Assembly: GCF_030384885.1 (NCBI RefSeq)
Contig: NZ_CP128614.1
DNA length: 64,000 nt
Reading direction: 5' to 3' (one strand)
Source: Escherichia coli
GTDB lineage: Bacteria; Pseudomonadota; Gammaproteobacteria; Enterobacterales; Enterobacteriaceae
Part shown: piece by piece, positions 34,526 through 53,969 of the stretch
Position numbering within the stretch: the stretch's first letter is position 1
How the letters are laid out: each line of letters begins with the position of its first letter
The notes under the pieces: model-generated
What the model was told of the DNA's origin: nothing
The model's database searches: none
Seen by the model: the letters and a program-made list of their open reading frames with translations, nothing else
Program-made: the position numbers and the translations under genes

Positions 34526-35023
34526 AATGCCTCTTGATTATATTGCCCTTCGAATGTTGAACATTATATCTTTAGAGGCAATATTTTGTCACATCCCACG
34601 ATATTTTGGAGCTGAATTATTTGATCAGGCTTACACAATCTTTCTTCTCTATCCCCATTTACCTTTTGCTCTGTTACCTGCGTTGAAATGGTTGATGACC
34701 CACTAATACTGTACTCTGCCTCTTGTATAAATACATTTCAACATAAGATTGGCAAAGTAATCCTCCATAGTAGCTGCTTGAGTGGTTGATTGTCGGAATA
34801 GTGCATAGCCATTTTGGTCAGCAGAAAGCGCTGTTACCGAATGACTTGATCGTAGTACGTGTCTACTCGCCTACCAGAACTGCTGTCCTCTCATCAACTA
34901 TCTGTATAGGACCATTTGAAACATCAGATATATTTTCAGAAATCTCCTGTTAGCGTGATGGTGACTATCTTAGCTGAGAAGGATTACGAATATATTCTTA
35001 CATCATATTCTTTGAGGTGAAAG

Positions 35024-36247: not shown

Positions 36248-36582
36248 TTCTCTATCTTGCTCACTTTTTTTTGTATTTTTACATACGAATTGACAATGTC
36301 AAGATGTAGGGGGAATAATTTGTTCATAACGCATGGGGAGTAAATAGTTCCTATGAACCAATCATGTCATGATTTTCCACATAACGTGGTGTCAACTACA
36401 AGGCATAATAATCTCAGACATTAGTTCGGATGCTTGTCTCGTAAACTCGAGCTTAAACTTTTAATACTTTAATTGTTATGGCTCAGTCGTTACTGAGAAA
36501 GCTAATTTTGTAAAATAACCACCTACCTTACAGGTGCTAACGGATGCGCAAGCCATTGAATTATCTGGAAAATTCAATGAGT

Positions 36583-37053
36583 TCAATGATTATTTTTTTC
36601 TTCTAATTTTTTTATGACATTCCCATGCTTTTTACCACACCATGCTTGTTTCCTACCCATAATAAGCAAAACCATTGGCTCGGTCGCTTTCAGTCCGGTT
36701 CGCCAAGACCTTAGATCAGTACTTGATGGCTGTGGGAAATCTTCGGGATGCGTATGCCATTCGCCCAAATAGACTAGAAAACCGTCTGATTGCTGAAATA
36801 AGTCATCCACTTTTTGCTGGTGATGTTTGCTTTTTCTTTCTATTCGTAATCGCGATCTTATATCACCTGCGCCTGGTTCTGATATGTGGGTGATGACAAT
36901 GTGTTTCCCACGACGTTCTCCAATAAGGATTCCTCCTGCCTCGGTACTGGCATGATGTAATTGACGATATAAATACAACCGCTGCACAACATCACTCATG
37001 ATGACGACATGATTGTAATCATCATCGATAAAAACTAACTCAGTTATGTTCAT
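36583..37053 (-). CDS. cap3: CBASS Cap3 (JAB/JAMM isopeptidase)
   Basis: 156-aa ORF with EWHTHPEDFPQPSSTD (HxHx7Sx2D JAMM motif); overlaps the cap2 stop by 14 bp. Confidence 0.75.
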   Translation of the reverse strand: MNITELVFIDDDYNHVVIMSDVVQRLYLYRQLHHASTEAGGILIGERRGKHIVITHISEPGAGDIRSRLRIERKSKHHQQKVDDLFQQSDGFLVYLGEWHTHPEDFPQPSSTDLRSWRTGLKATEPMVLLIMGRKQAWCGKKHGNVIKKLEEKNNH

Positions 37054-38809: not shown

Positions 38810-40110
38810 CAGCCGCTTACCATCGTGGTGTTAATTTTTACAGGCGCCTGCTCCTTAGACGGGGAGATTTGAAATGCAGGAGCCGCAGCAATTGAAGTTA
38901 TTAACGAGGCATTAGTTACTCGTTTTCCAAACGCATTGTTTATCTTACGTAATGCTTCTTCCCTGCTACTTGAACTCTCTGCATCAAGCAAAATCCCCTC
39001 TAAATTTCTCATGGTTTCAACGATGGTTCTCTGATGTACGTTATGATCGCATTCGGCAGGGAAAAGTAACTTTTCATCAGTATCGTCGGGACTTTCCAGA
39101 CCGCGACAGAATTCATTAGGTAGTAATCTTGCAACTAGTTTCATCGTCCCTGTGAGGTCTGAACCATTATGTGCTTCTCTGTCGAGGATGTTTACAACTG
39201 CAGCCATCAGGCTAATAGATGAAGGACCTCCCACTTCCCATTGGGCATCTCTCCAGGCCTTCATAAAGCGGCAAATTGAACGGAGATGACCGCCAATACG
39301 CTTGCAACTATCATTAAACCAATCTTCAACAATTTTGGGGTCGCTGATCGACCACCTTCTTGCACCCTGACGCAGCGCTAAATTAACTTTGTCAGGTTCT
39401 ACTAGATATGCCTCGCGCATATCCATGTTTGCTGATAAAGACTCGAACATGGAGTCGGCACTTTTTATGATGTGTGCTGAATCGGCTGCAGTTTGTTTGG
39501 TCTGAAATTGCTCTTTGGGGATCGCATACATCGGTACGTCGATGTGTGTTTTCTCGTGAGGAATTTTGATGCGTCCGCAGGTGTTTTTTTCTTCATATAC
39601 CCATCCATCGTTTTCAGCCTCTAACGATTTCAGTGACGTATCAACGAGCAGAAGAAGTAAGGTGTGCCCAATACTGGGTTCGGATTCAAAGACCGTCATT
39701 GGCATGTAGGTGCCGTCATCGATATCCATTTCCTGACCCGGGTGAAAAGGTCTGTTTAACGTATCGTATTGAAAACTCCCTTGGGTCCAGAAGCGAGGTT
39801 GAAATTTGATGAAGTCATCACGAGCTACATCTTCCATTTCAAAAATGAGTCGAGCGAGAGTCTCACGGTCTGAGGGAGAGAGGTAGCGAACATTAGTTTG
39901 CTCCAGTTTAAATCTAACGCTTTCAAGCGTCAGAGTTTGCTTTCTGGCGTCTGTAGCAATTTGACGAGCTTCTTTAAACACATCCCTCGTTCTTTCACGG
40001 ACTTTCTGGCGAAGTGCTTTCAGTTTGTCGGATTCAGTCTTACCCAATTTTAGTTTACTGATTAAGCCATCCACACTATGGCTGTAGTAATTGTTAAAAT
40101 CCCAACGCAT
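38809..40110 (-). CDS. dncV: CD-NTase, DncV-like cyclic dinucleotide synthase
   Basis: 433-aa ORF; NTase motif QGSFQYDTLNRPFHPGQEMDIDDG; long stretches match Vibrio cholerae DncV as recalled (MRxxWNFxxYY N-terminus, RFWTQGSFQYDTLNRPF, C-terminal NxAFGxRVTN...STMVSG). Confidence 0.85.
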   Translation of the reverse strand: MRWDFNNYYSHSVDGLISKLKLGKTESDKLKALRQKVRERTRDVFKEARQIATDARKQTLTLESVRFKLEQTNVRYLSPSDRETLARLIFEMEDVARDDFIKFQPRFWTQGSFQYDTLNRPFHPGQEMDIDDGTYMPMTVFESEPSIGHTLLLLLVDTSLKSLEAENDGWVYEEKNTCGRIKIPHEKTHIDVPMYAIPKEQFQTKQTAADSAHIIKSADSMFESLSANMDMREAYLVEPDKVNLALRQGARRWSISDPKIVEDWFNDSCKRIGGHLRSICRFMKAWRDAQWEVGGPSSISLMAAVVNILDREAHNGSDLTGTMKLVARLLPNEFCRGLESPDDTDEKLLFPAECDHNVHQRTIVETMRNLEGILLDAESSSSREEALRKINNAFGKRVTNASLITSIAAAPAFQISPSKEQAPVKINTTMVSG

Positions 40111-41180
40111 CAGTGGATCTCCTGCGCATTCATGCGCTTAAAGGGTTTTGCGGGAGTAGTGAAAAAATTCTTAAGCTTCTGATCTTGAGCGAACTCAACA
40201 TTGGCGAGCTGCCTTCCCCTTGCGCTTAAATTTTCAAGGGAACTCTTCGTGGCATTATCCAGGGTGATATCACTGGCTGCTTCATTGGGGATAATTTCAT
40301 CCAGGTAGATGTAGTTATCCACCGCGTCATGGAGCATAAGCTCACGCTGTAGCATATTTTTATGAAGATGCTGGTTAGCTGTCATGGTTGTAAGCACCAG
40401 CCGTTTTCCCATACCCCAGAGACGACAGTAGCCATTCCACCATGTTTTGCTCAACAACTTTGGACTAAGTGAATACTCTTCACCAACAGTACCGATATTA
40501 AGTATATGTATGTCTTTATGGGTGACGCTGAAGTCAGAATTCATATCCCTGAAAACTTCCAGAAGTCCTATGTAGCTGGGGTTGTTTGCGACCAGACCAC
40601 CATCGGCAAAATATGCGCGGAGATCCTCACAATAGTGTGGGGAAAAATACGTTGGCGCGGCTGAGGTTGCCAGTGCGGCATCTATCAATTTAAGAGGCCC
40701 ATCACGAGTAAAATCTGGGTTGTGTGGTGTCTTGAAAAACTGCGGTTTTCCTGTTGAAAGGTTTACTGCCGGGATCATTACTCGCCGGGTTAGGTCATTG
40801 AATGTGGTTTCAGCCCCAATCATTTCTTGAATTGTTTCGCGAAGAGGATGGCTGCGGTAGATAGGAGCACAAAGTGATCTAAGCAAGTTGGTCAGGGACC
40901 ATCTTTTGGGAAAAATGTCATTCGCCCTATCGAAGAACACTCGTTCCAGCTCACGGGCACTTTTTCCTGTAGCAAGGCCGAGAGCTAATATGCCGCCTAT
41001 TGATGTCCCTGTAATGAGGTCAAAATAATCGCCAATTTTAATATCCTGATTAGGGTATTTGCTGGCAAGTATCCTCTCAATCTCAGAAAGGACACTGATC
41101 GTAAACATTCCCCTGGCCCCCCCGCCATTAAGACTTAGTATCCGCACGCCATAGTGATTTCCTGCACTTATGTCAGACAT
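40110..41180 (-). CDS. capV: CBASS effector CapV (patatin-like phospholipase)
   Basis: 356-aa ORF with patatin motifs GGGARG (oxyanion), GTSIGG (GxSxG nucleophile) and DGG; stop overlaps the dncV start. Confidence 0.85.
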   Translation of the reverse strand: MSDISAGNHYGVRILSLNGGGARGMFTISVLSEIERILASKYPNQDIKIGDYFDLITGTSIGGILALGLATGKSARELERVFFDRANDIFPKRWSLTNLLRSLCAPIYRSHPLRETIQEMIGAETTFNDLTRRVMIPAVNLSTGKPQFFKTPHNPDFTRDGPLKLIDAALATSAAPTYFSPHYCEDLRAYFADGGLVANNPSYIGLLEVFRDMNSDFSVTHKDIHILNIGTVGEEYSLSPKLLSKTWWNGYCRLWGMGKRLVLTTMTANQHLHKNMLQRELMLHDAVDNYIYLDEIIPNEAASDITLDNATKSSLENLSARGRQLANVEFAQDQKLKNFFTTPAKPFKRMNAQEIH

Positions 41181-41630
41181 AGCCAGCTCCCCTCGGAAAG
41201 ATAGCTATAAGATATGTCCGCTTTTGTAGTTTTCAATGTACAAATAACCAGCAAATTTGAAATATGGTTAAAATAACTGCGTTATGGAAATTAATTGAAT
41301 ATTAATTCTTATTTTTGTTTTCCTGATGGAATTAAAATCTAAGTATGTCATTTTCTGGCTAATTTTACGAAAGGAAAATCCATGGCACATGCAGCCATCA
41401 CCTCACTCAGTCTTGGCTACATGAAACAATCTTGGTGTTATCACCGGTGAGCAAGGAATTGAGAGCTAAGCCTTGAAACAGAGGCATATGTGGGAAAGTC
41501 AGTGGAAAAAATGATGGATCCTAATCTCCCTGTTCAATCGTAACGAATTATCGCCCTTTACTCTTTTCCAGATCCGACTTGGATGTTGTTCATCCAGGCC
41601 GCTAAACGTTGCTGTCGCCGGGCCATCTCG

Positions 41631-41927
41631 TCACCATTTCTCCTGTCTGGCGGGCAAATTTTCCAAAGATTTATTCTCTCCCGACGGCATCATTTCTGAT
41701 GAATTTGCCATCGATGAAAGGCTGATTTCTACTCCCAGCACGGTAAACACTTTGAACAGGCGTTCAATACTCGCACTGGCTGGATTGGCCTCCAGACGAG
41801 CATAGGTTTGCTGGGTCACACCTAACCTTTCAGAGACGTCTTTTTGCGTCAGCCCATTCGCTTTACGAAAGCCAAGCAGCATTGGACGCAATTGGGTAAG
41901 TATTTTTATCGGATAAACATTTTTCAT
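41631..41927 (-). CDS. HipB-like XRE-family HTH regulator
   Basis: 98-aa ORF; LGFRKANGLTQKDVSERLGVTQQTYARLEANPASASIERLFKVFTVLGVEISL aligns with E. coli HipB as recalled; no hipA-like gene follows; lies 450 bp upstream of capV on the same strand. Confidence 0.6.
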   Translation of the reverse strand: MKNVYPIKILTQLRPMLLGFRKANGLTQKDVSERLGVTQQTYARLEANPASASIERLFKVFTVLGVEISLSSMANSSEMMPSGENKSLENLPARQEKW

Positions 41928-42201
41928 CGTGGGTAGGCCTCTATATGGTTTGATACACCCTGTAAGCTGTGTTTACATAATTACACCTTAAAAGCTGTTA
42001 AATCAAGATTACAGCTTAAAAGCTGTTCAAAAGTCATAACAGCCTGTTGCTATTAATATGGACAGGAAGAATACGTAGCACTGGCAGACGCAAACCAGAC
42101 TTGGATTGATAACGGCCACTGCTGTTTATTGTTGAATCCGTCTAACCTAATTCCAGTTCAACTATTGAAATAGAACCGGCATAGCGGATACATTACGCAC
42201 G

Positions 42202-42600
42202 TTGTTACCTTGTATCATCAGGATGCCGTTGACTGTGTTTATCAGCCGTGAAGTCATTTCCAGAATCGTGCTTATCATCATGGCTGTTGCCGTGCTGAGC
42301 AGTTCGCTTATGGTAAAACCACAGGCTGTCTACAATCTCCAGGATACAACATCCATCAGTGACCATCAGCACGACAGCGATGAACCGCTGAATGAGCACG
42401 ATCCGTTACAGTTCCACTCGCACGGTAATGTGCATCACCTCAATGCCGATCATTCCCACGATCTGAACAAACTCTTCACGCTGACTGCTTTGCAGGCCTG
42501 GAACGCAGGCATGCGGGCGACGTTCGCGCTAAGTTCAGAACAAATCCTGCGGGTCCCCCAGGCGACCCCCGAACGCCCTCCGAGATCCCTGATTGCGTAA
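42202..42600 (+). CDS. His-rich secreted or membrane protein (possible metal binding)
   Basis: 132-aa ORF with a hydrophobic N-terminus and His/Asp-rich segment HQHDSDEPLNEHDPLQFHSHGNVHHLNADHSHD. Confidence 0.35.
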   Translation: MLPCIIRMPLTVFISREVISRIVLIIMAVAVLSSSLMVKPQAVYNLQDTTSISDHQHDSDEPLNEHDPLQFHSHGNVHHLNADHSHDLNKLFTLTALQAWNAGMRATFALSSEQILRVPQATPERPPRSLIA

Positions 42601-42643
42601 TAACTTCCGTTAATTCGTTATTATTCAATTTGTAAGGGTTTTT

Positions 42644-43043
42644 ATGAATACCAGCCTCGATATACAGGGCCGGTTGAACGGTGGCCTGCTTTCAGCTCAG
42701 GCGCGTTCGGCTTGTCTGTTTTTCCTGTTGTTACTGCTTTTCTACAGCCAGGGCGCGTATGCGCACGACGTGGCGGAGGGCGACAAAGGGTACATCCAGG
42801 AAATCACCGGGATTATCGTCAATGCACAAAGGAGCGTGGGTAACGCTGGAAGGTAATGTTATCAGCCAGCAGGATGAGTGGTACACCTTCCGTGATCCAA
42901 CCGGCACCATCAAAGTGCGCATTCCTCAGAAGGTCTGGAACGGGCAGCACTTCGATGCTCAGGATTTGGTGCGGGTGAGTGGGCAGGTAATTCATGAGAA
43001 TGGTGCTACGAGCCTTGATGTAGGTGTGATTAGCAAGCCCTGA
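42644..43043 (+). pseudogene. YgiW/YdeI (BOF, OB-fold) family periplasmic protein, frameshifted
   Basis: signal peptide in frame 1 (42644..42856) and the OB-fold body (AWVTLEGNVISQQDEWYTFRDPTGTIKVRIP...) in another frame (to 43043); frames switch near 42820-42850. Confidence 0.5.
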
Positions 43044-43235
43044 ATTCCATCAAAACAAGCGGTACTTATAATAACCTTCATCCCGAGCGTGATAGCGCAT
43101 CACAACTTCGAGACTTTCTTCAAGGAATATATACGTCTGGGCATAGGACTCTCCATTATGAGAGTCCAACTAATGAGGGCAATGTATCGATCTGAGTATG
43201 AGATTGCTTTGTGGACTAAGGCAGAAATGAGCCTT

Positions 43236-43547
43236 CTAAGGCTGATCCTTCTTCAAGATTTTGATGAGTTCGATTTGCTGTTGTTCAGACATGTTAGCGA
43301 TCAGGCGAGCTAACTCTGCAGTCGTTTCGTTCTCGCAAAAGAAGTAGTTGATCGGTACCCCAAGTTCATCAGCCATACGCTTAAGAGTATCAATGTCAGG
43401 AGTATGTCTCCCCTTCTCGTAGTGGTTCATGCGGCCACTCGCTGAACTTGGTTCCATGCCAATTCGGATACCCAATTCTTTCTGAGTGATCCCGGCATAC
43501 GTTCTGGCAGCCTTGAGCCTGTCAGGTATCGGATTTGGGTGAGCCAC
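43236..43547 (-). CDS. XRE-family HTH transcriptional regulator
   Basis: 103-aa ORF with HTH LKAARTYAGITQKELGIRIGMEPSSASGRMNHYEKG; divergent from the helicase operon. Confidence 0.6.
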   Translation of the reverse strand: MAHPNPIPDRLKAARTYAGITQKELGIRIGMEPSSASGRMNHYEKGRHTPDIDTLKRMADELGVPINYFFCENETTAELARLIANMSEQQQIELIKILKKDQP

Positions 43548-43572
43548 GAAGTCATCATCATTGCCTTAGAGT

Positions 43573-43623
43573 ACTTAGATTGTCTAAGTTTCGTTGGTTT
43601 CTGTATACTTAGCAATTCTAAGT
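43573..43623. promoter_or_regulatory. two 17-bp palindromic operators in the divergent promoter region
   Basis: ACTTAGAttgTCTAAGT (43573-43589) and ACTTAGcaattCTAAGT (43607-43623), same half-sites, 17 bp apart, between the XRE gene and the helicase-operon start. Confidence 0.6.
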
Positions 43624-43646
43624 TTACTGATTTGGAAGTTTTAACA

Positions 43647-44216
43647 ATGAAGTCTGCAGTGAAGTTGCACCCTTATATTTATAATTTGTTGATAGAAAGA
43701 GATTTTGATGAGTTCGGTGCTATCCATCTCAGGGACGCTTTGCTGAAGATTACAGATTCATATGCTGATGTAACTGAAGCCAGAAAATTCATCCGCCGAC
43801 AACTTATCCGGCTGGAGGCATTGGGCTTCATTTTTAAAATTGAAAATAGCAGTGGGCGTCCGAAGATCCTGTACAAGAAAACGGAAAGCTTCTATTCAAC
43901 GACTTTCATACCAAGAAAATTGCCAAGTAACTCGCGCCTGGCTGCTGTGCCCGAAAATGTGAAACTACACGTTTTGGATGTCGATCTGTTCTTAATGGAC
44001 CTGACAAAAGAAAAAACTGTCCATGAGGCCAAACTTGCCGTCATTCTGAGTGAAATTGAAGAGTACCAGTCTCTTATGGAGCGTTTTCCCAGTAGACGGA
44101 GCTGCTTTATTGAACTCCATCAGCACGCAAAAAATCAGTCCGCCGCTTTGCTTGGCAGGGTTACTGCTTTATCGAAAGTGCTAGGTCAGCTTAGCGATGG
44201 GGATTGCGCATGCTGA
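43647..44216 (+). CDS. hypothetical protein, first gene of the helicase operon
   Basis: listed ORF 43539..44216; likely start is ATG at 43647 (MKSAVKL..., RBS-like GGAAG upstream) since the upstream part overlaps the divergent XRE gene; no catalytic motif recognised; 13-bp overlap with the helicase gene. Confidence 0.5.
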   Translation: MKSAVKLHPYIYNLLIERDFDEFGAIHLRDALLKITDSYADVTEARKFIRRQLIRLEALGFIFKIENSSGRPKILYKKTESFYSTTFIPRKLPSNSRLAAVPENVKLHVLDVDLFLMDLTKEKTVHEAKLAVILSEIEEYQSLMERFPSRRSCFIELHQHAKNQSAALLGRVTALSKVLGQLSDGDCAC

Positions 44217-45598
44217 GGGAGTGGCAGAAAGAATGCTCTGAAGCAGCGCTAGAAAAATATCAATCTGGATCGCCGCACTTTCTATGTCTTGCCAGTCCTG
44301 GTGCAGGAAAAACCGTGATGGCTGCTGAAGTTGCCAGGAAAATGCTGGAGCTGAAACTAGTAGATCTCATCCTATGCTTTGCACCTTCATCTGTGGTGGT
44401 TGCATCCATTGAAAGTACTTTCTCCCATATTCTTCAAAGGAACTTTAATGGTGGTCTTGGTGCAGTAGGTGCTGCGTATACTTATCATAGCTTGATGTAT
44501 TTCGATAAAAGCTTCTGGAAGTCTTTGCAGATGCATCGGGTATTAGTTATTTTCGACGAAATCCATCATTGTTCTGGCGATTCGCTGGATAATGCTAATG
44601 TGTGGGGCGGGGAAATCCTTTCTCAAGTTCAGCAATGTGCCAGTTACTCTTTGGCACTAACAGGGACTCCATGGCGAACTGATAGTACTCCTATAGTGCT
44701 CTCAAATTACACTGATCCGGATGGGGAGATCTGTTGTGACTATGTATATGGACTACATGAGGCTATTGTCGATGGTGTTTGTCGTAAACCTAAAATCGCC
44801 TTGATAAACAGCAATAATTTAGTATATTCATCAAAGGATAATGTTCAGTTTTTTGGTTCCATCACAGATTTCCTGAGTGAAACCGTTGCTTCGTATCAAT
44901 CAATAATTTGGCATCCAGAAGCAATGAAGTATGTACTAGAAGCTGGATGTAAAAAACTTAACGAAATACGCAAAGTTAATTCTGATGCGGGTGGTTTAGT
45001 TGTTGCTTCTTCAGTCGAGCATGCATATAAGCTACTGAATATTTTGGAAAAAGAGTTTGACCAAACAGCGATAATTGTGACGTACCACGATCGAGATGCT
45101 TTGGCTAAGATTGGATATTATCGGCAATCAACTACAGAATGGATTGTTAGCGTTGGTATGATTAGTGAGGGCACAGATATCCCCAGGCTACAGGTCTGCT
45201 GCCATTTGAGTTCTGTCAAAACAGAACTTTACTTCAGACAAGTATTGGGCAGGATATTACGGGTGAATCAGAGTGAAAATCAGGAAGCCTGGTTATTTAC
45301 AATGGCTACAAATGAACTGACATTATTCTCAAACAGATTGGCCGAAGATTTACCTGAAGATTATAAAGTTATGCAACAACAATCTGATGATTGGTCATTC
45401 CCTACAATTGATTCTCAGTCTATGCCTCCAGAGTTTGTGCGGAAAAATGGTATATCTAAAATAAAAGAGATTGATTTAGAAATGGATATTGGTGAAATAA
45501 CTACATCGTCACCTACGATTTCAAGTCAAACAAAACAACTAAAAATGGGCTCAATGCATCAACAAGTGATAGATGCATTTTTATTTTCAATTATTTAA
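44204..45598 (+). CDS. SF2 DExH-box helicase
   Basis: 464-aa ORF with Walker A ASPGAGKT, motif II IFDEIHH, LTGTPWR, and motif VI FRQVLGRILR. Confidence 0.65.
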   Translation: MRMLREWQKECSEAALEKYQSGSPHFLCLASPGAGKTVMAAEVARKMLELKLVDLILCFAPSSVVVASIESTFSHILQRNFNGGLGAVGAAYTYHSLMYFDKSFWKSLQMHRVLVIFDEIHHCSGDSLDNANVWGGEILSQVQQCASYSLALTGTPWRTDSTPIVLSNYTDPDGEICCDYVYGLHEAIVDGVCRKPKIALINSNNLVYSSKDNVQFFGSITDFLSETVASYQSIIWHPEAMKYVLEAGCKKLNEIRKVNSDAGGLVVASSVEHAYKLLNILEKEFDQTAIIVTYHDRDALAKIGYYRQSTTEWIVSVGMISEGTDIPRLQVCCHLSSVKTELYFRQVLGRILRVNQSENQEAWLFTMATNELTLFSNRLAEDLPEDYKVMQQQSDDWSFPTIDSQSMPPEFVRKNGISKIKEIDLEMDIGEITTSSPTISSQTKQLKMGSMHQQVIDAFLFSII

Positions 45599-45654
45599 TT
45601 TTTTATCGTATGCCGTAAACGGTTTGAAGAGTGAATTAACGGCATTGATTCAAG

Positions 45655-45975
45655 TTAAAACTGGCTAGTTACGGCCAGTTTCCCTAGGGAACTATAGTTT
45701 TTATCTATACAACGTGAAGCTAAAGAAGAGTGAATGATTGCCTTTTTTGTAACTAATTTTATTTTTAACTCCTCAAGCTTGTCTTTTAATGATTTATTTT
45801 CCTCTTCAAGAAATGATATTTTTACTAGTGATGCCCTTAATAAGTCATTGAGCTGGTGATGTTCTGAAGCCATTTGACGGAGTCTTTTTCGAGGGGGCTG
45901 AAAGCGTTCTGCAGGCACTGTTAGTGGTATAAAATATGCCCACGACTGTATTCCTGTTGTGTGGTAATTCCTCAA
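45655..45975 (-). CDS. small coiled-coil protein (partial paralog of 45993..46433)
   Basis: 106-aa ORF; MASEHHQLNDLLRASL...EEENKSLKDKLEELK parallels MAAEHHQLSHALRVARSRIEALEQEIKALK in the neighbour. Confidence 0.4.
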   Translation of the reverse strand: MRNYHTTGIQSWAYFIPLTVPAERFQPPRKRLRQMASEHHQLNDLLRASLVKISFLEEENKSLKDKLEELKIKLVTKKAIIHSSLASRCIDKNYSSLGKLAVTSQF

Positions 45976-45992
45976 TGAAAAGAAGTGAATGC

Positions 45993-46433
45993 TTATTTTA
46001 TTCTTACTATCTGGCCTTGTTTTAAAGCTTTTATCTCTTGTTCCAGCGCTTCAATACGTGAACGTGCAACCCTCAGCGCATGGGAGAGCTGATGATGTTC
46101 AGCCGCCATCACTTCCAGACGACGTTTCATATCAGATGCTTTTACACGGTACTGAATTTTCACTTTACGCTCTTGGTTAAATTTATGTCGCAGGGCTTCC
46201 TGTGACTGATGAGTTAGCCTGCCCTGAGGGGATATTTTTAACCGCAGAATTTCCTCCTGGACGCGTGACTTAAATGCCCCGTAGTAGTAACAGGTTCCGT
46301 TTCCCAGCCCGGCCTCCTCTTCAACAGCACGCACCGACAACTTTCGGTTGTCAGGGATACGTTTTGTCTGACCATCAAGGATCCGTTGTAGTGCAGCTTC
46401 AAGTTTAAGGAGTGTATTTTCTGATTTGCTCAT
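45993..46433 (-). CDS. small coiled-coil protein downstream of the recombinase genes
   Basis: 146-aa ORF overlapping the stop of the 720-aa gene by 4 bp. Confidence 0.45.
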   Translation of the reverse strand: MSKSENTLLKLEAALQRILDGQTKRIPDNRKLSVRAVEEEAGLGNGTCYYYGAFKSRVQEEILRLKISPQGRLTHQSQEALRHKFNQERKVKIQYRVKASDMKRRLEVMAAEHHQLSHALRVARSRIEALEQEIKALKQGQIVRIK

Positions 46434-48592
46434 ACGCCTGTCACCTTAATGGGATGTTCATATGTGTCATAGCCAATCCCATGATCCTGCATAACCCGTT
46501 CCGCAGCCCGGATTTGAGTGATACAGTGGGCATACTCACTGATGCTTAGATCCGTCTGTTGCTGAAGATACATTATCAAAGCATTATGACGTTGCTGCCA
46601 CCACATGGCCTTATCCGTATCGATAATGCTTCCACCGCTACGACAATCCACGCAGAATGCAGGGTTGACCACACCATCCATATCGCAGTCATAGCCGTTT
46701 TTGCAGTAACTATGTAGCGTTCCATGCAAAGTAAGTCGTTTTTCCCTGACCAGTCGATAGAGATTATCCCAGCTACTGTAGATCACAGGCTTATCATTAC
46801 GCATAGCTAGAATGGCTTTGCCAAAACTTCCGCTGAGTTGACTATCCCCGTTAAACCAGCTGTCAAAAAGACTAGTTGTCTGTTCGAGCCTTGCTTCATT
46901 CAGTAATTTAATCAGTTCGCTGTCCACCTGTATTGATTGTAGCCGTGCTTCAACAGCACCGTTCCCATACCATTCACTCATTCGCAGGCTGAGGTGTTTA
47001 AACTGTTGTTTGATTGCGATGGGGTGTCCGAGCTGGTTACGTACGGCAAAGCAGGCGAAAGTTCTTCGAAACTGATGGGTTAAAAGGGGCCAGGCCTCTC
47101 CTGTTCTGATCTTATCTTCTATAGCCCCCCTGTCCCGAGGGTTAAGCTGACGGCACTCTGCGAGTGCCTGTTTATCAACAATAGCACCCACATGTCTGGA
47201 AAAATTTTTTAAACGGTCGTTCCACTTGCTGCGTGAAATGAGGACAGGCAGGTTTTTTCTTTGGTACTGGCTGAGCCACAGATTTCCTGCTGTCTCAGTA
47301 AGCGTATCAGACTGCCCTGGGTCGTTGCTGTGAACCGCTATTTTTAACAGCTGTTCACGAGCACACGCGCTGAGAGCCGTCGCAAGCGATATGGCTTTTT
47401 CAACAATAGGGCTTGCCAGCCATTCTTCATTTTTTTTCCCGGCAGCCAGTTTGTGGGTTGCTGCGCTTACCGAGTGAAAATCCTGTCCATTAATGGTGTA
47501 GGTGTGAAAACTGTCCACATGCAATTCAAATATTTCGCTGACTCTCATTCCTGTGAAAGCACCACAACAAATAAAACAGGCTGCCTGAAGTTGAGCACGA
47601 AAACTGACGAGCCAGTTACCGTCTGCTGCGCTACTGGGCAGGAGTCCTGTTCCGGTGAGATGGTTTTTGATTAGGGTATTTTGCGACCGGGGTGTCGCTT
47701 TATTAATTTCTTCTACATATTCTTTTGAACATAATTTCCCCTGTCCGTTAGTCAGCCATGTCCACTTACCTGTAAGTATTTTATAGTCAACAACGGCACG
47801 CCCGATATCATAATTAGACTGCAGTTCACGTTCTAGCTGGGCTAGTGTTTCTCTGTGGGGCCATGCAAGCTCGACAAGTCTAACGGCTTCTCCATAGAGT
47901 ATATTTGCTATTGCCTGGGGGATGGCCAGGGTTTGCCTGTGTTCTGCTTTATTTTTAGCTGACAGTTTTTTGGCTGTCTGTTTGTAGTTCAGCTGTGGCA
48001 GGTCAAGCTGGAAAGGAAGCCATGAATTTAGTCTTTCGACTGACTGTAGTGCAGAGAAAATCAATTCAACAGTTCGCTTACTAAAGGCTTCACGTTCGAT
48101 ATCGTTTTGTAGCTTTTGCCATATCTCGGGTTTATTGAAGTCAGACAGGCACGTGCTGCCACTATGCAAAAGCGTTAATAAACTCTTTTTTAACCCTAAA
48201 TTGAATCGGGAGGTCAGTGTTGACAGCTTGCAGTCTTTTCCGGAGTGATAATTTTGCTCAAATATCCATCCATATACGATAAGCTTCGCCTGAAGGAGAA
48301 GCGCCGGAGCGGACTCCAAATAGGTAAAGTTAAATTCACGCTGGTTTTTATCCGTTCCCTTATCTGAAGCAAAGGGGCTACAGTCCCAGCAATTTTGACC
48401 AAAATATGCTCGCGTGATGTTATGTTTATCGATACATATTGGGAGCTTATCGAGCGCAGACCAGTTTTTGTTTTTTATCAGAAGTAAAATATCTTCTGTG
48501 GCTCCATACGTCAGAGCGTCTTTATGAAATGAGTTCAACAGAATAGCCATAGTGATCCTTATGTCATATCTGTGCTTTGCACATCTGACCAC
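46430..48592 (-). CDS. tyrosine-recombinase-like protein (third of three tandem genes)
   Basis: 720-aa ORF with AFTGMRVSEIFEL (box I Arg) and LTHQFRRTFACFAV (HxxR) in the C-terminal half. Confidence 0.55.
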   Translation of the reverse strand: MVRCAKHRYDIRITMAILLNSFHKDALTYGATEDILLLIKNKNWSALDKLPICIDKHNITRAYFGQNCWDCSPFASDKGTDKNQREFNFTYLESAPALLLQAKLIVYGWIFEQNYHSGKDCKLSTLTSRFNLGLKKSLLTLLHSGSTCLSDFNKPEIWQKLQNDIEREAFSKRTVELIFSALQSVERLNSWLPFQLDLPQLNYKQTAKKLSAKNKAEHRQTLAIPQAIANILYGEAVRLVELAWPHRETLAQLERELQSNYDIGRAVVDYKILTGKWTWLTNGQGKLCSKEYVEEINKATPRSQNTLIKNHLTGTGLLPSSAADGNWLVSFRAQLQAACFICCGAFTGMRVSEIFELHVDSFHTYTINGQDFHSVSAATHKLAAGKKNEEWLASPIVEKAISLATALSACAREQLLKIAVHSNDPGQSDTLTETAGNLWLSQYQRKNLPVLISRSKWNDRLKNFSRHVGAIVDKQALAECRQLNPRDRGAIEDKIRTGEAWPLLTHQFRRTFACFAVRNQLGHPIAIKQQFKHLSLRMSEWYGNGAVEARLQSIQVDSELIKLLNEARLEQTTSLFDSWFNGDSQLSGSFGKAILAMRNDKPVIYSSWDNLYRLVREKRLTLHGTLHSYCKNGYDCDMDGVVNPAFCVDCRSGGSIIDTDKAMWWQQRHNALIMYLQQQTDLSISEYAHCITQIRAAERVMQDHGIGYDTYEHPIKVTGV

Positions 48593-50334
48593 AGGGGATG
48601 TCGTCCTTCATCAGCAAGTTTTCGACGGGCATGTTGTAGTGTTTTTTGATTCAGTAATTTCAGCCTGCTATCAATGTTTACGATGGTCTGGCCAAAGTTT
48701 TTTGTGTAATGGGCTTTATCCAGGTGAAGGTATTGTGATTCTTCCAGATATTCACGGAAGCTTAACACGCACCATAAATCCGTTACTGATTCGACCAGAA
48801 CCTGATGTTTGCAACTCCAGCAGTTTAACAGGTCAGCACAAGCCAGCGTTTCTTCCGGGGGGATCAGCCCGTTTCTCCTGGCCCGGGAAGTGAACATCGT
48901 GGCCATTGTACCAGCCGTGTCGTTACAATAACTTCCATGGGAGTTTCGTACGGGAGGCGATGCTCTTCTGACATAGGCCTCATATGCCAGCACGCTGACC
49001 TTTTGTGCTTCACGTACTTTCTGTTTTGCAGATTCAATACTCTGCCTGTCCCGGACAACCTGTTCCAGTGTCTGGCTGGTATCCCGGTTCATTTGATTGT
49101 TCTCGTAGGGGTTACCATCAGAATATGCCTGACGGATAGTTTCGGGGGTATTATCAAGCAGTAGTGCAGCCTCGACCGGGCCCTTCAGCGCCAGTGTCAG
49201 ATGACTGCCGGTGGCCCGAAAGCGCCTGGTGACCGGCCACAGCCTTTGCCCTAAGTCGTCTGTCATGGGGAAGTGTACAGAGAGCCAGCTACTTTTGAAG
49301 TCATTCAGCAGGCAGGAACTCATCATCTGGACGCTTTTTTTCCGATGACTATAGGTCGGTAAGAGCAGGCCATCCGGGCCGGGGTCTAACAACGTTGACG
49401 CAGTAATGAGCTGGTCAAAAAACTGTGTTGCGTATTTGGGTATTTCCAGCCGATTGTTGTCACCTATCTCAACAGAGATTGTTTTAAATGCCCGGCGCTT
49501 AAAGGCTGGCATCTGATGCCAGTTATCTGATGGTGTATGGCTGCTGAGTGTCGGTCTTTTTAATGTGTACAGGATGGAGCTGTTGCTCCATGTGTAATAA
49601 CTGAGCAGGTATGCGGCTGCATAAAATAATTTTGATACACCGCTGCGTACAGGATACGTTTTCCCTTTCCAGCAAAAAGTCATTGTTGCTGTGATACCGC
49701 TGGCTTTGATATGTGAATCTGGGTCAAGAATAAACTGGGAGTAAAGTTGCCTGAACAGTCCTCTTAGTAAAGGGAGTAATTTTTTCAGGTCACCATCGCT
49801 ATATCCTCGTGTGGGCTCTGATTGTGTATTTCCCGGGTTTTTAAACCCTGACGTAAACTTTGTACTCCGCCCCATCCAGTTGTATAAGGTTGTCAGGTCT
49901 GCCTTTATCCTGGAGGCTGTGCTGTCTTTGATTTCGCCCCTCCTTTGACGAAGTAAATGACATTTCAACTCTCTGATGAACGTGCTCTCAGACAGGGGGA
50001 TAAGTGCTGGCACCTGACTGTCACAGAAAGTAAAATGCTTTCTTGCAGCATTAAAAATATTATACTTTGTTGCAGGTGTGACATCTTCATGGCCAGTAAT
50101 TGCAATAAACAGTGACTGTACAATGTCATCCCGTGCCAGTAATTGCTCATCCCCCTGTTTTATCAGGTTGGTTTTGGGTATGCCCTTATAGCGAAAGCGG
50201 TTAAAATCTAACAGGGTATGAGCATTGGCGCCATTGCGTATTGGTATACAGAGGTGTTCAACCCAGGGCGTTGTGAGTTTTAATTTGCTGCTCATACTTT
50301 CACTCCAGTAGTGCTCTGTGCATAATTTCATCAA
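48559..50334 (-). CDS. recombinase-module protein (second of three)
   Basis: 591-aa ORF overlapping both neighbours; catalytic motifs not clearly readable. Confidence 0.45.
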   Translation of the reverse strand: MMKLCTEHYWSESMSSKLKLTTPWVEHLCIPIRNGANAHTLLDFNRFRYKGIPKTNLIKQGDEQLLARDDIVQSLFIAITGHEDVTPATKYNIFNAARKHFTFCDSQVPALIPLSESTFIRELKCHLLRQRRGEIKDSTASRIKADLTTLYNWMGRSTKFTSGFKNPGNTQSEPTRGYSDGDLKKLLPLLRGLFRQLYSQFILDPDSHIKASGITATMTFCWKGKTYPVRSGVSKLFYAAAYLLSYYTWSNSSILYTLKRPTLSSHTPSDNWHQMPAFKRRAFKTISVEIGDNNRLEIPKYATQFFDQLITASTLLDPGPDGLLLPTYSHRKKSVQMMSSCLLNDFKSSWLSVHFPMTDDLGQRLWPVTRRFRATGSHLTLALKGPVEAALLLDNTPETIRQAYSDGNPYENNQMNRDTSQTLEQVVRDRQSIESAKQKVREAQKVSVLAYEAYVRRASPPVRNSHGSYCNDTAGTMATMFTSRARRNGLIPPEETLACADLLNCWSCKHQVLVESVTDLWCVLSFREYLEESQYLHLDKAHYTKNFGQTIVNIDSRLKLLNQKTLQHARRKLADEGRHPLWSDVQSTDMT

Positions 50335-51679
50335 GCATAGAGATTTTTTCTTTCAGGGCTTCTTTAGTTTTTAGATAGCGTAAATACTTCCATGTTGTTG
50401 ATTCATTTTTATGCCCCATCCATTGCATCAGCAGGCTGAGTGCATCGGCAGGCTCTATGCCCGCAGTAAGTAGACTGTACAGGCGATACGTTGCATAACT
50501 GCACCTCAGGTCATGAAACTTATGGTCAAATGCGATCCCTGAATTAATCATTTTTTTTCGCAATTCACCAAATCGGGCACCCGTGCTCTGTGGGGTACAG
50601 GGGGAGCCCTGCTGACTAATAAATAAGGGTTCATTTTGAATGGCAGAAACTAAAGATTCAGATCTGATTTTGTCTGAAAAGAGTGTTCCGGGTACGGTTT
50701 TTATTTCTTGCTGACCCATTTTTAACATCGCTTTAATACGCATCTGTAATTTATCAAAGCGGGTCATTCTTCTTTCGCTAATGGCATAGTGCTGTAATTT
50801 ATCTAAAAGAGTATTAGTTATTTCAATCGTTCTTGTTTTATTATATTTAGTGGGTACACCGTTACTAGGTCCAATAGTGATTTCGTAGTGGGTACGTGAT
50901 TCGGTTCTTTGTACAGCCTGATTTAACGCAGTTAAGGTAAATCCTGTGGCTTCTTCAATTCTGAGCCCACATTGTGCTGCCAGCAGACAAATAAGCTGCA
51001 TTTCAACTGAGGTCTGGCTAAGATGGATTGCAAATTCTGTAAGCATTGTTTGCGAAAGTGGTGATAATCTGCGAATATTCAGACTGTTAGAGTCTTTAGG
51101 GACCCTGATACGTAAATCCGTTGTCTGTACGAAAAATTTTGGCTTCATATGTGCCAGTATGTCGTTATTTCTGAATCTGACAAATTCTATGTCAAAGGGT
51201 TTGTTTGTTTCCGTTACCGGAAAGTAGTGCTCATACGCTGCCCAGAGATAGAACTGTACAAGATGACATATATAGGTATTAGCCGTGGAAAAAGCGATTT
51301 CTCCAGTTTTGACCTTTTTTAGCAGCCCATCATTACGGTAGCGATAGGCAGGTTTTAATGCTTTTACTGCAGGAAAGTTATCCCATGCAAGTTCTTCAGA
51401 CTCCAAAAAGCACCAGTAAAATTTTAACGCTCTTGCATAAGAGCTAAGGTTTTCCAGTCTTTTTTCAGCTTTGAGATGTATAAGCCATTGATTTACAGGT
51501 TCTATATAATTACCATCATAACCATACAATGTAGGAAGTGGACCCACATTTCGTCCCCCCCTGAATTCAATCGATTCATCTGTAGTAATGATATCACCAC
51601 CAATAAATACATCTGCTGAGTTGAGTAAATAAGCCAAGAATGCAGACCTCCAATGGTTGTAAACTTCTGCCATGCTCAT
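50300..51679 (-). CDS. tyrosine recombinase / integrase (first of three)
   Basis: 459-aa ORF with CGLRIEEATG (box I Arg), HKFHDLRCSYATY (HxxR) and C-terminal WKYLRYLK Tyr region. Confidence 0.65.
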   Translation of the reverse strand: MSMAEVYNHWRSAFLAYLLNSADVFIGGDIITTDESIEFRGGRNVGPLPTLYGYDGNYIEPVNQWLIHLKAEKRLENLSSYARALKFYWCFLESEELAWDNFPAVKALKPAYRYRNDGLLKKVKTGEIAFSTANTYICHLVQFYLWAAYEHYFPVTETNKPFDIEFVRFRNNDILAHMKPKFFVQTTDLRIRVPKDSNSLNIRRLSPLSQTMLTEFAIHLSQTSVEMQLICLLAAQCGLRIEEATGFTLTALNQAVQRTESRTHYEITIGPSNGVPTKYNKTRTIEITNTLLDKLQHYAISERRMTRFDKLQMRIKAMLKMGQQEIKTVPGTLFSDKIRSESLVSAIQNEPLFISQQGSPCTPQSTGARFGELRKKMINSGIAFDHKFHDLRCSYATYRLYSLLTAGIEPADALSLLMQWMGHKNESTTWKYLRYLKTKEALKEKISMLDEIMHRALLE

Positions 51680-52783: not shown

Positions 52784-53032
52784 TTATGAGTATACGCCAT
52801 GCTCTAAACGCAAAATTAATGATACGACCATTAAACCTCCCTCTTCAGGGTCAATGGCTTCAGTGGGTGTTTTCCAGGCTAATGCTCTGTTAGAGGTATT
52901 GCACCATTTCAAAGCAGAATCTCTGTTCCCCTCAAAAAGCGCTAACGCTTTTAGATGTAGAACACTTTTGGTCATCATCTGTGATCCTGAATGACTTTTT
53001 AGTACTTCAAAAAGGTTGCTTCGTAGAGTCAT
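52784..53032 (-). CDS. DUF2384-like protein (toxin-binding domain of Xre/ParS/MbcA-type antitoxins)
   Basis: 82-aa ORF; DSALKWCNTSNRALAWKTPTEAIDPEEGGLMVVSLILRLEHGVYS fits the recalled DUF2384 consensus (W..P.ALGG.P..L..T..G...V...L.RIEHG); no RES-type partner ORF downstream; palindromic motif 115 bp upstream. Confidence 0.5.
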   Translation of the reverse strand: MTLRSNLFEVLKSHSGSQMMTKSVLHLKALALFEGNRDSALKWCNTSNRALAWKTPTEAIDPEEGGLMVVSLILRLEHGVYS

Positions 53033-53157: not shown

Positions 53158-53396
53158 TCTATAGCAACCTAAACCAGTGTGGTTGTGACCAGTCCCCGGT
53201 ATTAAACACCATAGTCAGTTAGTAATATCAGTTTTCTTTCTTTATCCCATTTTGCCAGTCTATTGCAAACTCCGCTGGCGTCAGAAAATTCAGTGAGGAA
53301 TGAGGCCGACATGCTCTGCACTCTGACCTGATAGCATAAAAAAACTGGCTTTTTAGGCCAGTTTTACAGAGTTGCAAAGGTGTAGGTATAGTTTTT

Positions 53397-53969
53397 CTAC
53401 ACTAACGTGTCATGGTAGGTTGAGCACTGACGGGTTGAAGAATTAGTCCAGGTCGGAAGTCCACGTCCAGTCAGAATGCGGCCTACCCAGCTCTGCGTAA
53501 GAGACGGTTGGGCGACAAGGACTGTGACCGGTAGCTGGTGTTCAGCAATGAACATTCTAAGCTGGTTGAGAACCTGTGAAGCCTGATAGTGCATCTCAGG
53601 GTTTTCGATCAGCGTATCGGACATCTGAATGAAATGATGTTCGCTGATATTTGTGCCGTTACGTACTGCCCTGATCAATGCCATCAGAAATAGGTGAAGA
53701 AGAGAATGGGAGTCTTTACCGCCACTGTATCCCACGCACATCGTCCATCCGTCCGTAATAGCCTGATAAATAGCAGATGTGGCTGACGTGACCAGAGAAG
53801 AAAGACTCACAGTCTCCTTTTCATCGGTATAGTTCAGATCGGCATCGGTTGTCAGGGTCTCCCAAACATCAGCCCATTTATCATGTTTCAAAATGGCAGC
53901 ATTAGCCGCCTCAGGAAAAATAACTTCTGAGGGTAATTCAAGGAATGAGTCACTTTTTTCAATAAACAT
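53397..53969 (-). pseudogene. N-terminal fragment of a PAPS-reductase-family (DndC/IbrA-like) gene
   Basis: 190-aa ORF with P-loop YSGGKDS and DT/PE motif (SDTLIENPE) but none of the downstream fold motifs; those are found in the 31221..33176 ORF. Confidence 0.5.

Follow-up and report, generated by a model that had tools for sequence, protein, structure and literature searches.

What kind of mobile element is represented by five consecutive minus-strand open reading frames (ORFs) of an Escherichia coli contig (NZ_CP128614.1), and how far does that element extend? Within the window, that is, the whole 64,000-nucleotide stretch that was analysed, we recovered these ORFs (459, 591, 720, 146 and 106 aa) exactly where the first-pass annotation had placed them, at 50300-51679, 48559-50334, 46430-48592, 45993-46433 and 45655-45975, respectively. 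We consider it very probable that they constitute the core recombination module, together with a srap-like relic, of a plasmid-borne copy of SE-EasCA1043, a catalogued strand-biased circularizing integrative element (SE). The whole SE occupies 33054-53417, comprising 20,358 bp from terminus C to terminus C' plus a 6-bp footprint.

SE-EasCA1043 was listed in the chromosome of Enterobacter asburiae CAV1043 (NZ_CP034336.1; Additional files 6 and 8 of Idola et al. 2023, PMC10214605). CP034336.1 matches the window at 99.977% identity across 17,425 bp, the match beginning exactly at 53417; the IntA, IntB and Srap proteins of CAV1043 are identical to those of the window, Tfp differs by one substitution, and the curated tfp and srap coordinates agree with the window proteins. 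Both copies have the same C and C' termini, the same cargo and the same GC content (42.02% over our 20,358 bp, published value 42.0248%). They differ in location, SE-EasCA1043 lying at the 3' end of gor and the window copy inside a PAPS-reductase-family gene of a large, resistance-type IncHI2 plasmid, and in footprint, which is GTTTGT in the window and TCAACC in SE-EasCA1043 according to a CAV1043 attR taken from the machine-read supplement only. The published table gives an SE_end of 3010419 and a length of 20,288 (PMC10214605); this end looks like a one-digit slip, since our own mapping and the paper's terminus sequence both give 3010489 (20,358 bp).

Genes of the recombination module

All core genes share a strand and are grouped at the element's motif-C end, in the SE order intA-tfp-intB-srap:

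50300..51679, minus strand: intA, tyrosine recombinase of ordinary size, 457-459 aa (Pfam Phage_integrase, E = 4.8e-8)
48559..50295, minus strand: tfp, tyrosine-recombinase-fold protein of 578 aa without the full catalytic set
46430..48550, minus strand: intB, large tyrosine recombinase of 706 aa whose N terminus carries a long extension and whose C-terminal part has a Cys cluster
[quoted passage not shown]
45655..45873, minus strand: srap-like C-terminal remnant, called as 72 aa, in a frame open to 45975 (the 106-aa ORF)

The 591-aa tfp ORF begins at an upstream TTG and the 720-aa intB ORF at an upstream GTG; the actual starts, judged from alignments of homologs and from the genes called in ten other copies, are the ATG codons at 50295 (Tfp, 578 aa) and 48550 (IntB, 706 aa). 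The overlapping stops and starts reported earlier are thus mostly a longest-ORF artefact: gaps of 4 nt and 8 nt, with good ribosome-binding sites, separate intA from tfp and tfp from intB, and the sole overlap among the core genes is that of the srap start with the intB stop, by 4 nt (ATGA).

The first and third proteins are tyrosine recombinases, as had been proposed from their motifs. IntA residues R238, K276/K279, H387, R390, H421 and Y430 are invariant in 28 homologs, and IntB residues R336, K367, H492, R495, H519 and Y528 are likewise invariant across homologs. Both proteins therefore carry the R-H-R-Y motif expected of SE recombinases, and IntB has the unusual length that marks SEs (706 aa). 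The absence of a recombinase fold from the middle and third genes had been named as grounds for abandoning the recombinase interpretation; the fold is present in both Tfp and IntB. A Tfp-IntB profile-profile alignment yielded no significant match. In Tfp, the second catalytic Arg (R360) is retained, as is a Tyr (Y391) at the canonical 31-residue spacing, and Asn replaces the first Arg and the second His of the catalytic set. By tblastn, Tfp lands on curated tfp coding sequences of other SEs (E = 8e-58 to 7e-87), and its identity to the Tfp proteins of Vibrio and Alteromonas on the published list is 30-38%. The Srap encoded at CP034336.1 3003065-3003505, by the srap gene WP_023309561.1 of the SE paper's list, is exactly the window protein. 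The tfp-srap synteny block is the screening criterion for SEs (PMC10214605), and here the two genes are syntenic and their products orthologous to curated SE proteins. The hosts are gammaproteobacterial, as in other SEs, namely the Enterobacter cloacae complex and an IncHI2 plasmid.

The two small coiled-coil genes had been read as a partial duplication. Both proteins do contain a block of 36 residues that includes EHHQL (50% identity, E = 1e-8), but two full genes are not present: Srap similarity extends upstream of the called ATG of the second gene, which accordingly looks like the 3' remnant of a srap-like gene. This remnant is located at the boundary between core module and cargo.

Termini, footprints and insertion sites

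The ends were mapped by comparison with an empty IncHI2 site (L002), the approach suggested in the first-pass annotation, and the junction was clean:

53424..53969, minus strand: N-terminal part of the interrupted target, an IncHI2 'PAPS reductase family' gene
53418..53423, minus strand: 6 bp beside C in attL, TCAACC, the central 6 bp of the plasmid attB by comparison with the empty site
53398..53417, minus strand: motif C, the terminus nearer intA (minus strand TACCATGACACGTTAGTGTA), matching exactly the C published for SE-EasCA1043
53341..53365, minus strand: hairpin resembling a terminator, with a T-run after it, immediately inside motif C (sequence scan)
52784..52978, minus strand: small gene, called at 64 aa, whose product consists only of the C-terminal (toxin-binding) domain of Xre/MbcA/ParS (Pfam PF09722 in the called gene of ten copies; annotation of the plasmid copy)
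51680..52783, minus strand: region upstream of intA, about 1.1 kb, GC about 0.37-0.38, element interior
33060..33079, minus strand: motif C', the terminus farther from intA (minus strand ACTGTAACAGTGTGGTAGTA), the same sequence as the published C'
33054..33059, minus strand: 6-bp footprint beside C', GTTTGT, missing in the empty site, unlike chromosomal copies
31221..33053, minus strand: C-terminal part of the interrupted 'PAPS reductase family' gene

Motif C' is an imperfect inverted repeat of C (local alignment score 24, compared with 12 +/- 2.2 for shuffled sequences, 0 of 2000 of which reached 24), in line with the imperfect terminal inverted repeats of about 13-20 bp that characterize SEs. 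Homology with ten chromosomal copies begins exactly at 53417, so that the element ends 1,738 bp upstream of the intA start and not in 51680-52783, where an end had been suspected. That AT-rich interval contains no ORF of at least 60 aa lying wholly inside it, no Rfam match and no tandem repeat; its sequence was found in one PLSDB record only, and the window is 99.9-100% identical to chromosomal copies over stretches that include it. It presumably holds the promoter or a regulatory region of the intA operon. The toxin-binding domain gene at 52784..52978 has no RES toxin gene after it.

The N-terminal part of the target is 99.9% identical to pSTM6-275, in which the gene is an intact 794-aa coding sequence, and about 1000 IncHI2 plasmids have the site without an interruption, giving a clean junction without target duplication. 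In Enterobacter chromosomes the insertion site is the gor 3' end, and at least ten genomes have the element at gor; there the first 16 nt of motif C restore the final codons and stop of gor; the hairpin at 53341..53365 probably ends the rebuilt gor transcript there. With both gor and a plasmid gene as sites, the cluster does not occupy the one fixed chromosomal position that would have spoken against mobility.

The hexamers flanking the termini link the two kinds of site. The window's hexamer beside C', GTTTGT, is what flanks motif C at the gor site, and the C'-side hexamers of plasmid copies, GTTTGT (window, L001) and ATTTGT (L015), are the two natural variants of that 6-bp sequence. Conversely, TCAACC, the C flank of the plasmid site, is present beside C' in six of ten chromosomal attR loci, which represent nine distinct copies because two of them (L013 and L020) come from the same contig. 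The other four chromosomal attR loci (three distinct copies) carry TCTACG or TCTACC, for which no donor site was found. In all nine copies with an assignable donor, the C' hexamer is the C-side flank of the donor and the C hexamer is the target core. This is the footprint pattern of SEs, in which the central 6 bp of the target lie beside C and the 6 bp that flanked C in the donor lie beside C', without duplication. If the window copy moves again, the TCAACC at 53418..53423 is predicted to become the spacer of its circular form. Two different footprints on two plasmid backbone subtypes imply repeated insertions.

Related elements and alternative explanations

SE-6283 and SE-6945 of Vibrio alfacsensis, which have been characterized experimentally (PMC9345347, PMC10214605), have the four core genes in the same order as the window. 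They share with our element imperfect terminal inverted repeats, a donor-derived 6-bp footprint beside C' without target duplication, a lack of transfer genes, and copies on both a conjugative plasmid and a chromosome. Their cargo is bcp or blaGMA-1, whereas that of the window is CBASS defence; our element also differs in its Enterobacteriaceae host and its preference for the gor 3' end, and is known here from sequence alone.

Among other classes, genomic islands with three integrases (GInts, ginA-ginB-ginC-ginD) are the SE sister group commoner in Enterobacterales; they outnumber SEs in Escherichia and Klebsiella (PMC10214605) and have a similar layout of three recombinase-fold genes followed by a small coiled-coil gene. 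A GInt is nonetheless a highly improbable identity for this element. In GInts the incomplete protein is the product of the third gene; here the second gene encodes it and the third gene product is catalytic. Tfp also matches the tfp genes of curated SEs, as described above, and the paper itself lists the element as an SE and places Tfp and GinC, and Srap and GinD, in separate clusters (PMC10214605). Equally hard to sustain is membership of the RIT or Tn554 families, which the three adjacent recombinase-type genes had suggested. RIT elements encode three recombinases of 315-410 aa, all with a catalytic tyrosine, between 34-bp inverted repeats and have no fourth gene (PMC10214605), whereas the window proteins measure 457, 578 and 706 aa, the middle one lacks the full catalytic set, the imperfect termini are about 20 nt long and srap is present. 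By BLASTP, according to the same paper, SE proteins show no similarity to those of GInts. The likeness to Tn554 goes further, in that both leave a 6-bp footprint without target duplication and, according to PMC10214605, Tn554 depends on a small TnpC-like protein as SEs do on their small helper; this is shared behaviour and not proof of membership. The same paper describes Tn554 as consisting of tnpA-tnpB-tnpC only, without a Tfp counterpart, and as occurring in Firmicutes (Staphylococcus and Enterococcus); the additional recombinase-fold gene tfp and the enterobacterial host speak against it. What survives of the earlier proposal is a mobile-element module of several recombinase-type genes with a coiled-coil helper that works in a Tn554-like manner; the family assignments do not.

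Tyrosine recombinases normally act by conventional excision and integration, and Tn916-type elements bring 6-bp flanking sequences to new sites. Our data are end states from which intermediates are absent, and would be compatible with phage- or ICE-type cut-and-paste, or with Tn916-like heteroduplex coupling in which the footprints are coupling sequences. We judge such a route unlikely. Classical integration requires identical attL and attR cores, and here they differ (TCAACC and GTTTGT). The unequal hexamers also set the element apart from a classical integrase island (phage, ICE or IME), and a gene of the Xis type was not seen in it. Tn916-like resolution should place donor hexamers at either end, from either flank, whereas all nine assignable copies are one-sided, and in other SE members bottom-strand products stayed under 0.04% and no empty site appeared (PMC10214605).

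There is also a small chance that the cluster is an immobile relic, its shared sequence having passed between plasmid and chromosome by homologous recombination: the core genes are annotated in fragments on pMY490-mcr-9, the sole PLSDB plasmid with the element, and one SE assayed in published work gave no circle (PMC10214605). In the window, however, none of the four core ORFs is disrupted, each is identical or nearly so to its chromosomal counterparts, and both termini are intact. Plasmid and chromosomal flanks have no homology in common by which recombination could be driven, the junctions fall exactly at C and C', and the two footprints on distinct backbone subtypes again speak for repeated insertions.

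Cargo and proposed mode of transfer

The defence genes had been described as an island beside the recombinase cluster. They instead lie inside the same mobile element, at 33080..45598, and were assigned from PADLOC matches and from Pfam searches on the called genes of other copies:

44204-45598, plus strand: ResIII helicase
43539-44216, plus strand: VspR-like protein
43236-43547, minus strand: HTH control protein
40110-41180, minus strand: type II CBASS, CapV
38809-40110, minus strand: type II CBASS, CD-NTase
37040-38809, minus strand: type II CBASS, Cap2 E1/E2
36583-37053, minus strand: type II CBASS, Cap3 JAB
35024-36247, minus strand: 407-aa protein
33419-34525, minus strand: HEC-08 candidate

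No conjugation or mobilization genes were found among the cargo (called genes, Pfam and PADLOC). The footprints indicate that this element without transfer genes moves between cells on IncHI2 plasmids and then enters the gor 3' end. The reciprocal footprints show that movement took place in both directions at some time; current activity of the window copy does not follow from them.

Under the published SE model (PMC10214605, PMC9345347), IntA, IntB, Tfp and Srap would pair attL with attR and exchange the top strand only. The element would be copied out as a nicked double-stranded circle (attS) carrying the 6 bp that flanked C, leaving the donor site filled; the circle would then enter a preferred attB, and its spacer would end up beside C'. 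SE-EasCA1043 is not among the SEs assayed in published work, and strand bias is known from other members (PMC10214605): in five other SEs, a circular copy arose by top-strand exchange only and an empty donor site was absent (PMC10214605, PMC9345347). We suggest that catalytically incomplete Tfp subunits in the synapse could restrict exchange to one strand; a Tfp with R360 and Y391 but with Asn substitutions tentatively fits half-dead subunits that enforce single-strand exchange. On balance, we lean towards reading the footprints as the trace left in nature by a defence-carrying SE that was copied out and in repeatedly, and both ways, between megaplasmids of the IncHI2 type and the Enterobacter gor 3' end, with conjugative HI plasmids as the putative vehicle.

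Since the SE class and SE-EasCA1043 are both already published, these results add no new biology as to what the element is. The published survey has SE-EasCA1043 in the chromosome only (PMC10214605). The plasmid copy and its reciprocal 6-bp scars support, at the level of nucleotide comparison, the copy-out/copy-in model for SE-EasCA1043, and the scars illustrate how an element without transfer genes may spread among Enterobacter species. The IncHI2 CBASS "defence island" belongs as cargo to a transposable unit whose ends are defined, and should be annotated as such instead of as seven hypothetical proteins. IncHI2 plasmids rank among the main vehicles of resistance genes, mcr included, which makes a defence-carrying SE aboard them relevant to plasmid and phage ecology.

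A further SE, on a Klebsiella oxytoca IncHI1B plasmid (NZ_CP115680.1; L003), for which we found no name in the literature searched, has the same C' end, the same GTTTGT footprint and the same CBASS cargo (94% nucleotide identity) as the window copy. It shares the first 15 nt of motif C and sits in the homologous PAPS-reductase-family gene, with its insertion point about 200 bp away and its orientation opposite. Its core proteins are only about 40% identical to those of the window (Tfp 40.8%, Srap 42%), homology between the two elements stops inside the srap-like remnant, at 45810, and in the K. oxytoca element ISKpn26 adjoins the srap-like remnant. Given that cargo and C' end are the same while the core proteins diverge this far and a srap relic sits at the breakpoint, we tentatively propose that SE core modules can be swapped onto one cargo.

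Borders of the element and its identity with SE-EasCA1043

On either side of the insert, as far as window position 33053 and again from 53415/53418, the sequence matches about 1000 IncHI2 plasmids, and both flanks fall in a single 'PAPS reductase family' gene. Alignment with the empty site of plasmid pSTM6-275 revealed an insertion of 33054–53417 with 0 duplicated and 0 lost bases; the end mapping against an empty site that the first-pass annotation had proposed thus delimits the insert cleanly. In ten chromosomal copies the shared sequence starts exactly at 53417, and in one of them (L013) similarity to the window ends at 33060. From these limits, the unit between the intA-proximal terminus C and the intA-distal terminus C' is 33060–53417 (20,358 bp, 42.02% GC), while six bases, 33054–33059, lie outside both the plasmid backbone and the shared element. 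The imperfect inverted-repeat alignment of C with C' beat all 2000 shuffles. The range first annotated, 45655–51679, covers about one third of this element. It had been read as lying at the edge of a defence island, with a possible element end in the AT-rich 1.1 kb upstream of intA: the island is in fact cargo within the same element, and the end lies a further 630 bp outward.

[quoted passage not shown] 2023 (PMC10214605) as carrying intA-tfp-intB-srap at the motif-C end, with 13–19-bp imperfect inverted repeats as termini C and C', no target duplication, and a 6-bp sequence that flanks C at the donor site and is transferred to a position next to C' at the new one. With the 591-aa protein of the window as query, tblastn against plasmids produced hits along its full length in Vibrio, Shewanella and Alteromonas (30–38% identity, E = 8e-58 to 5e-94), and their coordinates agree with those of tfp genes in Additional file 3 of that paper. 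Its Additional file 8 lists SE-EasCA1043 of Enterobacter asburiae CAV1043 (42.02% GC, Tfp WP_023309559.1, Srap WP_023309561.1), and the termini printed in Additional file 6, C = TACACTAACGTGTCATGGTA and C' = ACTGTAACAGTGTGGTAGTA, are exactly equal to the ends mapped here. The exact Srap and IntA sequences of the window are common across the Enterobacter cloacae complex, and this Srap is encoded in CP034336.1 at the curated srap coordinates. Between the window and CP034336.1 we found 4 differences in 17,425 bp; one of the core proteins, Tfp, carries a substitution (L379R), whereas IntA, IntB and Srap are identical, as is the small ORF beside srap. Every SE property open to in silico testing is present in the locus, which is a copy of a member already catalogued.

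The published SE_end, 3010419 (length 20,288), falls 70 bp inside the terminus printed in the same paper (PMC10214605). Mapping on CP034336.1 places the end at 3010489, giving 20,358 bp, and the Additional file 8 value looks like a one-digit slip carried into the length.

Both the SE kind and SE-EasCA1043 are already known. In the literature searched, we found no account of the element on IncHI2, of defence as the nature of its cargo, of reciprocal footprints or of the related Klebsiella oxytoca element described below. These additions are useful annotations and an in silico confirmation, from sequence, of a published mechanism rather than a new class of system. In PLSDB, only pMY490-mcr-9 (NZ_CP053569.1) has the element. 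Its core region is 99.6% identical to the window, and its core genes (20432–26067) appear in the annotation as seven hypothetical proteins, all short, reflecting either frameshifts in that copy or assembly indel errors. Megablast against complete E. coli genomes returned no copy of the element, nor did a motif C scan of one-genome-per-species contigs.

In many related IncHI2 plasmids, the 5 kb left of the insertion site (window 28000–33053) is split in two pieces, with IS100, IS21, IS66, ISVsa5, ISApl1 and sometimes mcr-1 among the features annotated there. The surroundings of the PAPS-reductase-family gene look like a general insertion hotspot.

The recombinase core

All five ORFs of the first-pass annotation are present, each as the longest frame:

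50300–51679, minus strand: intA, 459 aa
48559–50334, minus strand: tfp, 591 aa
46430–48592, minus strand: intB, 720 aa
45993–46433, minus strand: srap, 146 aa
45655–45975, minus strand: srap-like small ORF, 106 aa

The EHHQL block noted in the two small proteins belongs to a shared 36-residue coiled-coil block (50% identity, E = 1e-8). When homologs were aligned and genes were called on ten other copies, Tfp shortened to 578 aa and IntB to 706 aa. The long gene overlaps arose because the longest ORFs were taken: stop and start overlap only at intB/srap (ATGA), whereas intA/tfp and tfp/intB are separated by gaps of 4 and 8 nt, preceded by GGAG and AAGGA.

Among the three large proteins, only IntA gave a clear Pfam integrase match (E = 4.8e-8); Pfam returned a marginal match for IntB and none for Tfp (591-aa ORF). 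NCBIfam added nothing to Pfam for the core proteins, with nothing useful for Tfp or IntB, and sequence profiles reached no solved structure. Alignment of diverse homologs nevertheless bore out the recombinase motifs reported in the first and third proteins, revealing invariant R-K-H-R-H-Y sets in IntA (R238, K276/K279, H387, R390, H421, Y430) and IntB (R336, K367, H492, R495, H519, Y528). AlphaFold models of Tfp and IntB, built from alignments (pLDDT 79 each; pTM 0.63 and 0.70), had structural matches to IntI4 (11.7), XerH (11.1), Cre (10.6) and lambda Int (10.5) for Tfp, and to XerA (13.2), IntI4 (12.9 over 279 residues), XerH (12.5) and Tn1549 Int (12.1) for IntB. A recombinase fold is present in IntA, Tfp and IntB, so the objection anticipated in the first-pass annotation, that the middle and third genes might lack any such fold, falls away.

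In the homolog alignment, Tfp shows no conserved His and lacks the box-I Arg, in agreement with the published recombinase-fold protein without a catalytic motif, which is described as lacking RHRY with no more detail (PMC10214605). By motif spacing, an invariant Asn would stand in place of the first Arg (N238; YTWSN versus YTGLR) and another in place of the second His (N382). Tfp keeps an invariant Arg (R360) and an invariant Tyr (Y391) 31 residues apart (RFRATG...LLDNTPxTxxxxY); in XerD, Cre and lambda Int, the second catalytic Arg and the Tyr are spaced by 31–32. Profile–profile alignment of Tfp with IntB (hhalign) was not significant, so the residue-level equivalence of the Tfp pocket is putative. 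Four C-terminal cysteines are invariant or nearly so in Tfp (C457/C486/C492/C495) and in IntB (C616/C622/C633/C636), and may form a zinc-binding module; this region of IntB (residues 586–640) was modelled poorly (pLDDT < 50). The SE literature searched contained no mention of these clusters.

The gene order differs from that of GInt, and the gene set from that of Tn554; the sizes, catalytic tyrosine in all three proteins, 34-bp repeats and absence of a fourth gene that mark RIT elements were not found, and membership among classical integrase islands was rejected. The Tn554-like or RIT assignment first suggested by the layout was abandoned. With Tn554 the locus has only two traits in common, footprint behaviour and a small helper protein.

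Reciprocal footprints at the plasmid and gor sites

The chromosomal element occupies the last codons of gor, with a junction reading ...GAAGA(G/A)TTTGT up to the border and TACCATGACACGTTAG beyond it. The terminus restores the gor reading frame, ending VTMTR-stop; native E. coli gor ends VTMR-stop. The ten chromosomal junctions at C' (attR) represent nine distinct copies, L013 and L020 sharing one contig.

Hexamers beside the termini (copies; site; beside C; beside C')
Window; IncHI2 plasmid; TCAACC; GTTTGT
L001 (pMY490-mcr-9); IncHI2 plasmid; TCAACC; GTTTGT
L015; IncHI2 plasmid; outside coverage; ATTTGT
L004–L013; gor; GTTTGT or ATTTGT; (L013, see below)
L014, L017, L018, L019, L021, L022; gor; outside coverage; TCAACC
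L013, L020, L023; gor; GTTTGT (L013; others outside coverage); TCTACG
L016; gor; outside coverage; TCTACC

TCAACC is the centre of the empty IncHI2 target, and the gor core occurs naturally as either GTTTGT or ATTTGT. Taken with these identities, the hexamers show that at each site the one beside C' is the other site's C-side hexamer. Under classical integration the cores at the two ends should be identical, whereas the hexamers differ; with unbiased, Tn916-like heteroduplex resolution, a donor hexamer could lie at either end, which is not the pattern seen. The reciprocal hexamers fit the prediction of the SE model, in which the 6 bp on the donor's C side would enter the circle and then be deposited beside C'. 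A move from plasmid to gor would yield ...GA(A/G)TTTGT joined to TACCATG at the C junction (attL) and ...GGTAGTA TCAACC joined to GACCATGCG at attR. The footprints also show movement in both directions between plasmid and gor. Footprints and backbone subtypes differ among the plasmid copies, which suggests that the element entered the plasmid site more than once. For CAV1043, the machine-read supplement of PMC10214605 suggests TCAACC at attR; our CP034336.1 locus stops short of that end.

Homologs of the plasmid target gene, searched for a donor of TCTACG and TCTACC, showed only TCAACC, TCTACA and GCTACA. Other HI-type plasmids have TCTACA or GCTACA at the homologous position (TCTACA in IncHI1-like homologs), and a metagenome scan yielded only two further gor-site copies and 0 new donor sites. 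In frame, TCA-ACC, TCT-ACA, TCT-ACC and TCT-ACG all encode Ser-Thr, which is why TCTACG (L013, L020, L023) and TCTACC (L016) may derive from versions of this plasmid gene outside the sample, though this is only suggestive.

Cargo, a related element and the element interior

The interior contains the following further features:

Left of the core: cargo of type II CBASS (CapV, CD-NTase, Cap2, Cap3), an HEC-08 candidate, a ResIII helicase, a VspR-like protein and regulators
52784–52978, minus strand: 64-aa gene with an Xre/MbcA/ParS C-terminal toxin-binding domain only
53228–53377, minus strand: 49-aa ORF ending ...RPHSSLNFLTPAEFAIDW, just inside the C end and conserved in all copies

The VspR-like protein (Pfam VspR_N/VspR_C) and the ResIII helicase (43539–45598, plus strand) adjoin the DncV-like CBASS operon (36583–41180, minus strand). 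vspR and dncV are associated in Vibrio VSP-1, and by this analogy the cargo may be of Vibrio-type origin, in line with the SE host range.

A K. oxytoca plasmid (NZ_CP115680.1) carries a second SE at about 11999–31100 with the same C' end, the same footprint (GTTTGT) and a CBASS cargo whose nucleotide sequence is 94% identical (versus window 33053–45810), whereas identity to the core proteins of the window is only about 40% (Tfp 40.8%, Srap 42%). This plasmid is of type IncHI1B, and the insertion interrupts its homolog of the PAPS-reductase-family gene, in reversed orientation and about 200 bp away from the position equivalent to the window's site. This comparison suggests that core modules were swapped onto one cargo. 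The srap-like small ORF (45655–45975) sits exactly where homology to the K. oxytoca element stops (45810), and its similarity to Srap begins upstream of its called ATG; it may be a relic of an older srap left after core-module replacement, e.g., by tandem insertion and then deletion.

Searches of the mildly AT-rich 1.1 kb upstream of intA returned neither an Rfam match nor a tandem repeat, and they turned up no repeat family hinting at arm-type sites and no relative outside the element. This otherwise featureless region contains a perfect inverted repeat, with 12-bp arms around a 10-nt loop (52308–52341; ATGAGAGGGTGA...TCACCCTCTCAT), which could serve as an operator or fold as a hairpin in RNA. 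Downstream of the 64-aa gene there is no gene for a RES-type toxin; its product would be an antitoxin, whether orphan or degraded, or else a small protein that regulates the intA operon. The end of the 49-aa ORF presumably resembles the C-terminus of IS3-family (rve) transposases and, if so, this ORF is a short IS relic.
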